Shown here piece after piece: positions 6,771 to 14,570 of a DNA stretch of 35,919 nt. The notes under the pieces are model-generated. The model was not told the origin of the DNA, did not search any database, and saw only the letters and a list, made by a program, of their open reading frames with translations. The DNA comes from Escherichia coli (lineage in GTDB: Bacteria > Pseudomonadota > Gammaproteobacteria > Enterobacterales > Enterobacteriaceae). The stretch lies in assembly GCF_003334305.1 (NCBI RefSeq), contig NZ_QOWS01000032.1. One strand, 5' to 3'. Both the position numbers and the translations under genes were made by a program. Position 1 is the stretch's first letter, and every line of letters starts with the position of its first letter.

Positions 6771-7748
6771 ATGAATGCACTGACCGCCGTACAAAATAAC
6801 GCTGTCGATTCAGGCCAGGACTATAGCGGATTCACTCTCATCCCGTCGGCGCAATCCCCGCGTCTGCTGGAACTCACCTTCACCGAACAGACGACCAAAC
6901 AGTTTCTCGAACAGGTTGCCGAGTGGCCCGTGCAGGCGCTGGAGTACAAATCGTTTCTGCGTTTTCGGGTAGGCAAAATTCTTGATGATCTGTGTGCGAA
7001 TCAGCTGCAACCGTTGCTGTTAAAGACCCTGCTAAACCGCGCTGAAGGTGCGTTGTTGATCAATGCGGTGGGTGTCGATGATGTGAAGCAAGCGGATGAG
7101 ATGGTGAAGCTGGCAACGGCGGTGGCGCATTTGATTGGTCGCTCCAATTTCGACGCGATGAGCGGTCAGTATTACGCGCGTTTTGTAGTGAAAAATGTCG
7201 ATAACTCAGACAGCTATCTGCGTCAGCCGCACCGCGTAATGGAGCTGCACAACGACGGTACCTACGTCGAAGAGATCACCGACTATGTGCTGATGATGAA
7301 AATCGACGAGCAGAACATGCAGGGCGGAAATTCGCTGCTGCTGCATCTCGATGACTGGGAACATCTGGACCACTATTTCCACCACCCACTAGCGCGCCGC
7401 CCAATGCGCTTTGCCGCGCCGCCGAGTAAAAACGTCAGCAAAGATGTTTTCCATCCGGTGTTCGACGTTGATCAACAGGGTCGCCCGGTGATGCGTTATA
7501 TCGACCAGTTCGTCCAGCCAAAAGACTTCGAAGAAGGCGTGTGGTTGAGCGAGCTTTCGGACGCCATTGAAACCAGCAAAGGCATTCTTTCTGTGCCCGT
7601 TCCCGTTGGCAAATTCCTGTTGATTAACAACCTGTTCTGGCTGCACGGTCGCGACCGCTTTACTCCGCACCCGGATCTGCGCCGTGAACTGATGCGTCAG
7701 CGTGGCTATTTCGCTTACGCCACTCACCACTACCAGACGCATCAGTAG
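6771..7748 (+). CDS. csiD: Glutarate 2-hydroxylase / carbon-starvation-induced protein CsiD (GlaH), 325 aa
   Basis: Translation [25 protein letters not shown]... recognized as CsiD. ATG at 6771 with AAGAGG Shine-Dalgarno at 6756..6761. The ORF track's upstream extension from 6666 is not used. Confidence 0.9.
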
Positions 7749-7766
7749 CGCAAAGGAATTGAGCGG

Positions 7767-9035
7767 ATGTATGATTTTGTGATTATTGGCGGTGGCATCA
7801 TCGGCATGTCGACCGCCATGCAACTGATTGATGTCTACCCGGACGCCCGCATTGCGTTGCTGGAAAAAGAGTCCGGCCCGGCCTGTCACCAGACGGGCCA
7901 CAACAGCGGCGTGATCCATGCCGGGGTTTATTACACGCCCGGCAGTCTGAAGGCGCAGTTTTGCCTGGCGGGAAACCGCGCCACCAAAGCCTTTTGCGAT
8001 CAAAACGGCATTCGCTACGACAACTGCGGCAAGATGCTGGTCGCCACCTCTGAACTCGAAATGGAACGGATGCGCGCGTTGTGGGAACGCACGGCGGCAA
8101 ACGGTATCGAACGCGAGTGGCTAAACGCCGACGAACTGCGCGAGCGCGAACCGAATATCACCGGGCTTGGCGGCATTTTTGTGCCGTCCAGCGGCATTGT
8201 CAGCTACCGCGAAGTGACAGCGGCGATGGCAAAAATTTTCCAGGCCAGAGGCGGTGAGATTATCTATAACGTCGAAGTCAGCGGCCTCAGTGAGCATAAA
8301 AACGGCGTGGTGATACGTACCCGCCAGGGCGGCGAATATGAAGCATCGACGCTGATTAGCTGTTCCGGGCTGATGGCTGACCGGCTGGTGAAAATGCTCG
8401 GACTCGAACCGGGCTTTATCATCTGCCCGTTCCGTGGTGAGTATTTCCGCCTTGCGCCGGAGCATAACCAGATTGTTAACCACCTGATTTACCCCATTCC
8501 CGACCCCGCGATGCCATTTTTGGGCGTGCATCTCACCCGCATGATCGATGGCAGCGTGACCGTCGGGCCAAACGCGGTGCTGGCTTTCAAACGTGAAGGC
8601 TATCGCAAGCGCGACTTCTCATTTAGCGACACGCTGGAGATTTTGAGCTCGTCGGGGATTCGCCGGGTGCTGCAAAACCATCTACGCTCAGGACTGGGCG
8701 AGATGAAAAACTCGCTGTGCAAAAGCGGCTATCTGCGGCTGGTGCAAAAGTATTGTCCCCGGCTTTCGTTAAGCGATCTCCAGCCCTGGCCCGCCGGTGT
8801 GCGGGCGCAGGCGGTATCGCCGGACGGCAAGCTGATTGACGATTTTCTGTTTGTCACCACCCCGCGCACGATCCACACCTGCAATGCGCCCTCCCCGGCA
8901 GCGACATCAGCAATTCCTATTGGTGCGCATATTGTCAGCAAGGTACAAACGCTGTTGGCAAGCCAGAGTAACCCCGGACGCACGCTGCGAGCGGCACGTA
9001 GTGTGGATGCCTTACACGCCGCATTTAATCAATAA
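7767..9035 (+). CDS. lhgO: L-2-hydroxyglutarate oxidase/dehydrogenase (FAD-dependent), 422 aa
   Basis: N-terminal FAD-binding fold MYDFVIIGGGIIGMSTAMQL (GxGxxG). Position directly after csiD and before gabD matches the known operon. Confidence 0.9.
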   Translation: MYDFVIIGGGIIGMSTAMQLIDVYPDARIALLEKESGPACHQTGHNSGVIHAGVYYTPGSLKAQFCLAGNRATKAFCDQNGIRYDNCGKMLVATSELEMERMRALWERTAANGIEREWLNADELREREPNITGLGGIFVPSSGIVSYREVTAAMAKIFQARGGEIIYNVEVSGLSEHKNGVVIRTRQGGEYEASTLISCSGLMADRLVKMLGLEPGFIICPFRGEYFRLAPEHNQIVNHLIYPIPDPAMPFLGVHLTRMIDGSVTVGPNAVLAFKREGYRKRDFSFSDTLEILSSSGIRRVLQNHLRSGLGEMKNSLCKSGYLRLVQKYCPRLSLSDLQPWPAGVRAQAVSPDGKLIDDFLFVTTPRTIHTCNAPSPAATSAIPIGAHIVSKVQTLLASQSNPGRTLRAARSVDALHAAFNQ

Positions 9036-9057
9036 CCTTTGAAAACAGGACGTAACA

Positions 9058-13437: not shown

Positions 13438-13457
13438 TAATGATCAGGAGTCACACC

Positions 13458-14120
13458 ATGACCATTACGTCTCTGGATGGCTATCGCTGGCTGAAGAACG
13501 ATATTATTCGCGGTAATTTTCAACCGGATGAAAAATTACGAATGAGTTTGCTGACATCGCGTTATGCACTTGGCGTTGGGCCGTTACGGGAAGCTCTTTC
13601 GCAACTGGTGGCGGAACGGCTGGTCACGGTGGTGAATCAAAAAGGGTATCGGGTGGCGTCTATGTCAGAGCAGGAGCTGCTCGATATTTTCGACGCCCGC
13701 GCCAATATGGAAGCGATGCTGGTCAGTCTGGCGATTGCCCGCGGTGGCGATGAATGGGAGGCAGACGTTCTCGCAAAAGCGCATCTGCTGAGTAAGCTGG
13801 AAGCCTGTGACGCCAGCGAGAAAATGCTTGATGAGTGGGATCTGCGTCATCAGGCGTTTCATACAGCAATTGTGGCGGGCTGTGGTTCTCACTATTTGCT
13901 GCAAATGCGTGAACGGTTGTTTGATCTGGCGGCGCGCTATCGATTTATCTGGCTGCGGCGAACGGTGCTTTCGGTAGAAATGCTGGAGGATAAACACGAT
14001 CAGCACCAGACCCTGACTGCGGCGGTACTGGCGCGAGATACCGCGCGCGCCAGTGAGTTAATGCGCCAGCATTTACTGACGCCAATTCCCATTATCCAGC
14101 AGGCGATGGCTGGCAATTAA
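13458..14120 (+). CDS. csiR: GntR-family transcriptional repressor of the csiD-gab operon, 220 aa
   Basis: ATG 13458 with CAGGAG Shine-Dalgarno at 13445..13450. N-terminal winged helix-turn-helix and FadR-like C-terminal domain. Position immediately after gabP. Confidence 0.85.
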   Translation: MTITSLDGYRWLKNDIIRGNFQPDEKLRMSLLTSRYALGVGPLREALSQLVAERLVTVVNQKGYRVASMSEQELLDIFDARANMEAMLVSLAIARGGDEWEADVLAKAHLLSKLEACDASEKMLDEWDLRHQAFHTAIVAGCGSHYLLQMRERLFDLAARYRFIWLRRTVLSVEMLEDKHDQHQTLTAAVLARDTARASELMRQHLLTPIPIIQQAMAGN

Positions 14121-14570
14121 CTACTCTTCCGGAATACGCAACACTTGCCCCGGATAAATTTTATCCGGGCTTTTTAGCATCGGTTTATTCGCTTCGAAGA
14201 TTTTATTGTACAGATTAGCGTTACCGTAGACCTGTTTGGAAATGGCACTCAGAGTGTCGCCAGACTTAACGGTATAAAACTGGCTGGCAGTGGCTGGTGT
14301 CGCCGTTTTCACCTGATCATCGACACTGGCAATACCGGAAATATTCCCAACCGCAACAAGGATTTTCTCCTTCGCCTCCTGACTCAGGCCGTCACCAGTG
14401 ACCGTCGCTTTGCCGTCGGCAATTTGAATGTTCACTTTATCGGCATCAGGTATACCGGTTTTGCTCAGATGCTCCTGCACCTTCTTCGCCTGATCGTCTT
14501 TATCGTGCTGACCTGTAACCGCGTCCCAGAGTTTTTCTCCGGCATCTTTCACAAAATTGAACAGACCCAT
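14121..14570 (-). CDS. ygaU: BON/LysM-domain potassium-binding protein, 149 aa
   Basis: Start at 14570 ([18 protein letters not shown]...) with GAGGT Shine-Dalgarno. C-terminal LysM motif ([47 protein letters not shown]). Confidence 0.85.

Follow-up and report, generated by a model that had tools for sequence, protein, structure and literature searches.

Two convergent genes whose stop codons touch leave no room between them for a transcription terminator, which raises the question of where the two transcripts end. This question is posed by csiR (also named glaR), the repressor gene that follows the glutarate and gamma-aminobutyrate (GABA) catabolic genes of Escherichia coli, and by its convergent neighbor kbp (ygaU). 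Both lie in a stretch of 35,919 nucleotides (nt) of E. coli chromosomal DNA (contig NZ_QOWS01000032.1 of assembly GCF_003334305.1), which is called the window here. Our reading, to which we give a probability of roughly 0.8, is that csiR is ended by an intrinsic terminator inside kbp, while kbp transcription is terminated by Rho in the antisense of csiR and the RNA is trimmed back to a stable hairpin (hairpin B). The observation behind the question is real and was correctly described, and it is already known: the reference annotation of K-12 contains the cluster with its regulation and the touching stops, and the RNA ends are in a public Term-seq table. An end signal located inside the neighboring gene is also a common arrangement in E. 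coli.

The csiR and kbp coding regions abut

Genes were called from a listing of open reading frames (ORFs) and from the Prokaryotic Genome Annotation Pipeline (PGAP) annotation of E. coli A7, which was 100% identical to an 8.3-kb query over the cluster in a nucleotide search of complete genomes. csiR (13458..14120, plus strand) encodes a GntR-family glutarate-responsive repressor, and kbp (14121..14570, minus strand), a sigma-S-induced gene, encodes a K+-binding BON/LysM protein. The junction reads GGCAAT-TAA-CTA-CTCTTC, where TAA at 14118-14120 is the csiR stop codon and the next three letters, CTA (14121-14123), read on the opposite strand as TAG, the stop codon of kbp. In the K-12 reference the two genes are laid out in the same way (glaR 2795674-2796336, kbp 2796337-2796786). 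The contact of the two stops with no nucleotide between them, which the original prediction had read from the letters of the window, is therefore confirmed by both the junction sequence and the K-12 annotation.

Mis-annotated stop codons were considered as the cause of the missing spacer and rejected, because both proteins match their NCBIfam equivalog models to the last residues. csiR scored 465.6 bits against a cut-off of 218 for NF008576 (residues 1-220), and kbp scored 234.1 bits against a cut-off of 134 for NF008399. Since these models are passed over the full length, both stops are genuine. The original prediction had also stated that the abutment leaves no room for a terminator. This is right for the space between csiR and kbp, where none fits, but end signals do exist, inside the coding sequence of the partner. 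Because the two coding regions abut, each 3'-end signal is written into the coding sequence of the other gene.

A probable intrinsic terminator for csiR inside kbp

RNA 3' ends were taken from the Term-seq data of Adams 2021 (PMC7815308, supplementary files 1 and 2), which were obtained with K-12. Window positions equal K-12 positions minus 2,782,216. K-12 and the window are 100% identical over 14040-14260, and the flanks printed in the Adams supplement match the window too. The original prediction had proposed Term-seq across the junction, and these public data already place a plus-strand end 55 nt past the csiR stop, inside kbp, and a minus-strand end 97 nt past the kbp stop, inside csiR.

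The csiR-strand end was mapped to K-12 2796391(+), which is window 14175, in LB at an optical density (OD) of 2.0 with a mean count of 1,697. This position is the last U of CUUUUU. The consensus scan, the fold and the Term-seq end together define an intrinsic-terminator-like element at 14149..14175 on the plus strand, in kbp codons 132-141, which consists of a 9-bp stem (14149-14169), a single C and UUUUU at 14171-14175. The stem has 5 GC pairs and a 3-nt loop, and its folding energy is -12.9 to -13.3 kcal/mol with a z score of about -3. The site thus combines a GC-containing stem-loop, a U tract and an in vivo 3' end within the U tract, as an intrinsic terminator does. Transcription on the csiR strand would run past the TAA and end 55 nt further on at this hairpin and UUUUU, and the plus-strand end at 14175 probably represents true intrinsic termination. 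The ends at 14175 and 14024 are most simply read as the ends of the csiR and kbp mRNAs. A sigma-70 scan of 13400-14750 found no promoter, and thus nothing to suggest that antisense RNAs start there independently.

Probable Rho termination and trimming on the kbp strand

The kbp-strand end lies at K-12 2796240(-), which is window 14024. It appears three times in the three-sheet Adams supplement, two of the entries having counts of 23,751 at OD 0.4 and 614,566 at OD 2.0. At OD 0.4 the kbp-strand end was called and the csiR-strand end was not, so that the kbp-strand end appears not to need csiR transcription.

Two hairpins precede this end on the minus strand. Hairpin A (14063..14082) lies in the kbp 3' untranslated region (UTR), antisense to the csiR codons for M-R-Q-H-L-L-T, and folds with -12.6 kcal/mol and a z score of -4.2. 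Its pairing is complete on the minus strand alone, where G-U pairs make up the stem: across 18 kbp-adjacent loci the minus strand has 118 Watson-Crick pairs, 17 G-U pairs and 1 mismatch, against 18 mismatches on the plus strand. Hairpin B (14027-14054) and the mapped end form a second element at 14024..14054, in csiR codons 189-199, as seen from the fold and Term-seq. This hairpin is GC-rich (-16.7 kcal/mol, z score -3.2) and has no U tract, and the 3' end lies 3 nt beyond it with the tail ACC.

Further along the same strand, the RNA antisense to csiR at 13520..13990 is untranslated and rich in C but poor in G: most of its 78-nt windows have a C/G ratio of 1.3-2.2. It contains a bicyclomycin-sensitive (Rho) region at K-12 2795811(-), about window 13595, with a Rho score of 6.6 and a significance of 1.3e-18 (Adams supplementary file 2). 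Bicyclomycin raises the reads downstream of this position from 23 to 367. The kbp strand therefore shows drug-sensitive read-through, an end at a stem-loop lacking U residues and C-rich rut-like RNA downstream, the last of which is a feature of low specificity because E. coli genes frequently have C-rich antisense strands.

This pattern has been described for Rho-terminated mRNAs, in which termination is diffuse and is followed by trimming back to a protective stem-loop (Dar & Sorek 2018, PMC6061677). Like the kbp strand, the transcripts in that study end just past a hairpin without a U tract and have C-rich RNA and a bicyclomycin-sensitive region downstream. The difference is that the hairpins of the kbp RNA, which would be trimmed in the same way, and its presumed rut region are complementary to the coding sequence of another gene, csiR, and lie within it. 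In this scheme, transcription on the kbp strand would pass the TAG and form two stable hairpins out of csiR codons. The RNA would then grow further, antisense to csiR, C-rich and untranslated, and would reach as far as about 525 nt into csiR before Rho ended its synthesis; 3'-to-5' exonucleases would trim it back to the second hairpin, leaving the sharp and abundant end 97 nt inside csiR. We consider it somewhat probable that the minus-strand end arises in this way, by Rho termination and then trimming.

The end at 14024 could also be made directly at hairpin B, either by non-canonical factor-independent termination or by pausing combined with head-on collision of RNA polymerases, a mechanism that has been put forward for overlapping bidirectional terminators. 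The end is indeed sharp, very abundant and immediately past a stable hairpin, and hairpin-dependent termination that is neither intrinsic-like nor Rho-dependent has been reported between convergent E. coli genes (Ju 2019; Wang 2022, 10.1101/2022.10.23.513370). However, the bicyclomycin-sensitive region lies further along the same strand, which means that a fraction of polymerases clearly passes hairpin B. The presence of the end at OD 0.4 without a detectable csiR-strand end indicates little opposing traffic, and the two 3' ends are 152 nt apart with no common hairpin. A direct or collision-driven stop at hairpin B is thus disfavored, and we regard it as unlikely.

The same geometry separates this junction from the overlapping bidirectional terminators described by Ju 2019 and in the Wang 2022 preprint (10.1101/2022.10.23.513370). 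These resemble csiR/kbp in being convergent, with crossing 3' ends and hairpins at both. They share one hairpin region, whereas the csiR/kbp ends (14175(+) and 14024(-)) belong to two separate elements 152 nt apart, with hairpins more than 90 nt apart, one a canonical intrinsic terminator and the other Rho-associated.

At the other end of kbp, a yqaE 3' end classed as 'primary' (K-12 2796831, window 14615) precedes the kbp start codon by only 45 nt, in the region 14571-14653, and the kbp 3'-end count is about 9 times the yqaE count in Term-seq. Because the end at 14615 is so close to the kbp start and the kbp count is higher, the kbp promoter must overlap the yqaE 3' end or terminator region.

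The transcripts overlap at an ordinary and conserved junction

The distance between the two Term-seq 3' ends gives a complementary stretch of 152 nt (14024..14175) between the mature csiR and kbp transcripts, as the original prediction had supposed in proposing antisense overlap. It had named 3' ends within each gene's own coding region as the outcome that would speak against overlap; this was looked at and the opposite was seen, with both ends located in the partner genes.

Convergent genes at this distance are not rare. In three arbitrary 50-kb samples of K-12, 21 pairs of convergent coding sequences were counted, and the spacer was zero or negative in 8 of them (-38, -25, -4 five times, and 0 once, for yebW/pphA). 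Three more pairs have spacers of 1, 2 and 3 nt, giving 11/21 at 3 nt or less, and the remainder range from 31 to 146 nt. Within the window, csiR/kbp is the tightest of four convergent pairs (0, 36, 46 and 63 nt). A preprint on REP elements (repetitive extragenic palindromic; 10.64898/2026.03.23.713779) counted 704 convergent E. coli pairs and left out those with zero or negative spacing from its analysis, and this removal confirms that such a class exists. A spacer of zero is thus nothing unusual for convergent genes in E. coli and is not beyond chance. The exact 4-nt overlap seen in 5/21 sampled pairs (zapC/ycbX, yccX/tusE, mscL/arfA, mntP/rlmA and exoX/ptrB) is a recurrent stop-codon overlap geometry.

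The junction was followed in a CsiR scan of one genome per species (40 loci). Wherever kbp is the convergent neighbor in Escherichia, Citrobacter and Salmonella, the csiR-kbp spacer lies within 0-12 nt throughout. The stops touch (0 nt) in E. coli and in one Escherichia species; other Escherichia have 3 or 6 nt, as do two Salmonella enterica subspecies and some Citrobacter, and the C. freundii group has 12 nt. Because of these short spacers, a terminator between csiR and kbp never fits in the related genomes. The distance from the conserved csiR '...QAM' codon to the kbp 'RIP' codon is constant, at 21 nt throughout Escherichia and at 45 nt for both Citrobacter and Salmonella, and the stops move by point mutation within this frame. 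Some lineages have lost kbp at this place, among them E. albertii, C. amalonaticus and C. youngae. There csiR meets yqaE tail-to-tail, and in C. youngae the stop codons of csiR and yqaE share 2 nt (GTTAATC).

In E. coli Res13-Lact-PEB14-36, an insertion sequence, IS1, lies about 22 nt before the csiR stop (about window 14098). It truncates csiR and removes the csiR-derived 3' hairpins of kbp, and the kbp coding sequence is intact.

The overlap could have a regulatory purpose of the excludon kind. Very strong stationary-phase transcription of kbp, antisense to the last 97 to about 525 nt of csiR, would lower csiR mRNA or CsiR synthesis, by RNase III cleavage of the duplex or by transcriptional interference. 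Under the same sigma-S conditions it would help to release the csiD operon from repression, with the abutment kept for that purpose. Neighboring transcripts on opposite strands do overlap here, by 152 nt in the mature RNAs and with read-through reaching about 525 nt, and the kbp-strand 3'-end count at OD 2.0 is about 360 times that of the csiR strand (614,566 vs 1,697). The arrangement also fits excludon type (b), in which convergent genes lack a terminator between them and have complementary mRNAs (Sesto 2013; Toledo-Arana & Lasa 2020; PMC7154746), and the abutment is kept across three genera. Synonymous diversity at the csiR 3' end is mildly reduced only where kbp adjoins (0.67-0.85, against 0.9-1.1), but this reduction is not significant. 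The support stops at the geometry and the count imbalance of about 360-fold, with no sign of mutual exclusion or RNase III processing. The csiR/kbp overlap is bounded by defined end signals inside coding sequences. Abutting convergent genes are common enough in E. coli (the 8/21 above) that a conserved abutment needs no special function, and the loss of kbp beside csiR in E. albertii, C. amalonaticus, C. youngae and further lineages was not accompanied by a loss of csiR. A search of the literature found nothing relevant on a small RNA (sRNA) from the ygaU 3' UTR or on antisense regulation of csiR. We therefore rate such a function as improbable. If true, a sigma-S-driven excludon would couple K+ and osmotic-stress signaling through kbp to de-repression of lysine, glutarate and GABA catabolism.

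Tests for selection on the embedded signals

A terminator written into the codons of another gene might leave a mark on their synonymous sites. Among 137 ten-codon windows of kbp compared across 17 species, the minimum of synonymous diversity falls at codons 128-137, with an observed/expected ratio of 0.29 (column-permutation P=0.0014), while the windows that do not overlap this trough range from 0.79 to 1.26. The trough corresponds to 14160..14189 (minus strand, as kbp is read) and takes in the 3' arm of the csiR terminator, its U tract and the 14 nt that follow the mapped end. A hairpin followed by a tract of 4-5 U is present inside kbp in 17/18 Escherichia, Citrobacter and Salmonella species, C. 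sedlakii being the exception. The trough supports purifying selection on the csiR terminator inside kbp; together with the recoding and G-U results below, the picture is mixed. That the plus-strand hairpin is a mere by-product of LysM-domain codons and an exonuclease stop, with csiR terminating deeper in kbp, is the least probable alternative: the protein motif SPDKIYPGQ is invariant across species and 11% of synonymous recodings fold equally well, but the RNA ends precisely on the final U of the five that follow the stem, which is the signature of intrinsic termination, no further plus-strand 3' end or Rho region is listed inside kbp in the supplementary tables of Adams 2021, and the synonymous trough spans the U tract and downstream bases beyond the stem.

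Several points weigh against our reading of the two ends. The Term-seq data come from K-12 and not from the strain of the window; both mapped ends and the hairpins are identical, and csiR differs at 9 positions overall. Adams 2021 classed both ends only as 'antisense', each being more than 50 nt past its own stop, as the 'primary' class is limited to positions at most 50 nt from the gene's own stop. The Rho-region list in supplementary file 2 does not contain the 14175 site, and absence from that list is no proof of Rho independence. When the coding sequences were recoded synonymously, the plus-strand hairpin segment was matched in folding by 11% of the recodings (P=0.11), hairpin B by 4-6% (P=0.04-0.06), and hairpin A gave P=0.11. 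The hairpins are thus largely dictated by the amino-acid sequences, and structure alone is weak evidence of design. For the csiR terminator stem, 10 plus-strand G-U pairs were counted against 2 for the minus strand, an excess that is roughly what the codon layout predicts.

Apart from the trough, three tests of selection gave no usable signal. Structure beyond coding constraint was rejected as a proof of selection on the recoding P values. Strand-specific tolerance of G-U pairs is uninformative, because a transition at 5/6 of the synonymous sites in the stem yields a wobble on the plus strand in any case. Covariation in hairpin B is limited to one pair of two synonymous sites, which shows G-C, A-U, the G-U intermediate and mismatches, and these are too few events. 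Rfam contains no family that matches at the csiR/kbp junction.

The lowest synonymous diversity of csiR itself among kbp-adjacent loci is at codons 75-84 (window 13680-13709), with a value of 0.51 and a permutation P of 0.07. These codons adjoin a plus-strand terminator-like hairpin found by the scan (13668-13682, followed by GATATTTTCG) and lie about 90 nt from the Rho region at 13595.

The catabolic cluster and the rest of the window

The genes upstream form a compact series on the plus strand. glaH (csiD; 6771..7748) encodes the glutarate dioxygenase/hydroxylase (NF002814, 543.7 bits vs cut-off 333), and lhgO (lhgD; 7767..9035) the L-2-hydroxyglutarate oxidase/dehydrogenase (NF008726, 604.9 vs 299). 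They are followed by gabD (9058..10506) for the NADP-dependent succinate-semialdehyde dehydrogenase (NF008415, 1085.7 vs 828), gabT (10520..11800) for the 4-aminobutyrate aminotransferase (NF005985, 912.1 vs 713) and gabP (12037..13437) for the GABA permease (NF007566, 1062.5 vs 871). The first four were called from both the ORF listing and PGAP A7, and gabP, csiR and kbp from PGAP A7. With csiR and kbp included, 7/7 proteins pass their equivalog cut-offs end to end, the PGAP names agree and the K-12 layout is the same, which bears out the gene identities and order given by the original prediction. The gaps from glaH through lhgO, gabD, gabT, gabP and csiR to kbp are 18, 22, 13, 236, 20 and 0 nt, so that its account of an intact cluster, with csiR 20 nt past gabP, holds in all coordinates by ORFs and PGAP A7. 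It had also placed a REP cluster ahead of gabP, and three REP-like palindromic units were found in the 236-nt gabT-gabP gap (about 11812..11948, no strand assigned) from a reading of the sequence and its inverted repeats. In Rfam, matches to naRNA4 (REP325-derived) at 11788-11948 are below threshold.

The window cluster is the characterized csiD(glaH)-lhgO-gabDTP operon with the repressor gene csiR(glaR), followed tail-to-tail by kbp. It degrades lysine through glutarate and L-2-hydroxyglutarate to 2-oxoglutarate and also serves GABA catabolism; glutarate-responsive CsiR represses the cluster, and the csiD promoter of the known operon is reported to be sigma-S/CRP-dependent, with CsiR operator sites upstream of csiD (Knorr 2018, PMC6265302). 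The K-12 cluster (b2659-b2665) has the same genes, order, orientations and zero-nt csiR/kbp junction. It differs in a glaH-lhgO gap of 19 nt, against 18 nt in the window, and by about 3% nucleotide divergence over glaH-gabP. Over window 6500-14800, divergence from K-12 is 2.3-4.4% in glaH-gabP, 1.4% in csiR and 0.9% in kbp. The 8.3-kb query is covered to at least 80% in 5,354/5,426 complete E. coli genomes, and a match of at least 99% occurs in only 18/5,419 genomes. The step in K-12 divergence and the few genomes at 99% or above suggest a recombination boundary near gabP/csiR. Term-seq also lists an RNA 3' end at K-12 2791241(+), window 9026, at OD 2.0 with a count of 1,035, which is 9 nt before the lhgO stop and 32 nt upstream of gabD. 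Here, between the csiD-lhgO part of the operon and its gabDTP part, transcription may partly stop or the RNA may be processed.

Elsewhere in the window, positions 1-6434 hold the end of an IS3 transposase, a truncated ypjA/ehaD autotransporter fragment, a recombinase fragment, a frameshifted DUF5507 gene, a frameshifted ygaQ-like alpha-amylase pseudogene and the tRNA gene ileY, whose CAU anticodon is assigned to Met by ARAGORN and to Ile by PGAP. ygaM is frameshifted at 17929-18257 (PGAP). A REP pair after proX (25917-25994) scores above the naRNA4 gathering score (65.2 bits), and the MicA sRNA lies at 32592-32663 between luxS and gshA (Rfam, 83.9 bits).

Implications for the locus

What is added to the known arrangement is that two Term-seq ends labeled only as 'antisense' find their simplest reading as the true 3' ends of the mRNAs of csiR and kbp. 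A stretch of kbp coding sequence that doubles as the csiR terminator, under constraint at its synonymous sites, would be a clean example of dual coding. Recoding or deletion of kbp, as in Keio-type knockouts or by codon optimization, would remove the csiR terminator, and deletion of the csiR 3' end would remove the hairpins that stabilize the kbp mRNA. The embedded signals are therefore relevant when mutant phenotypes at the csiR/kbp locus are read.

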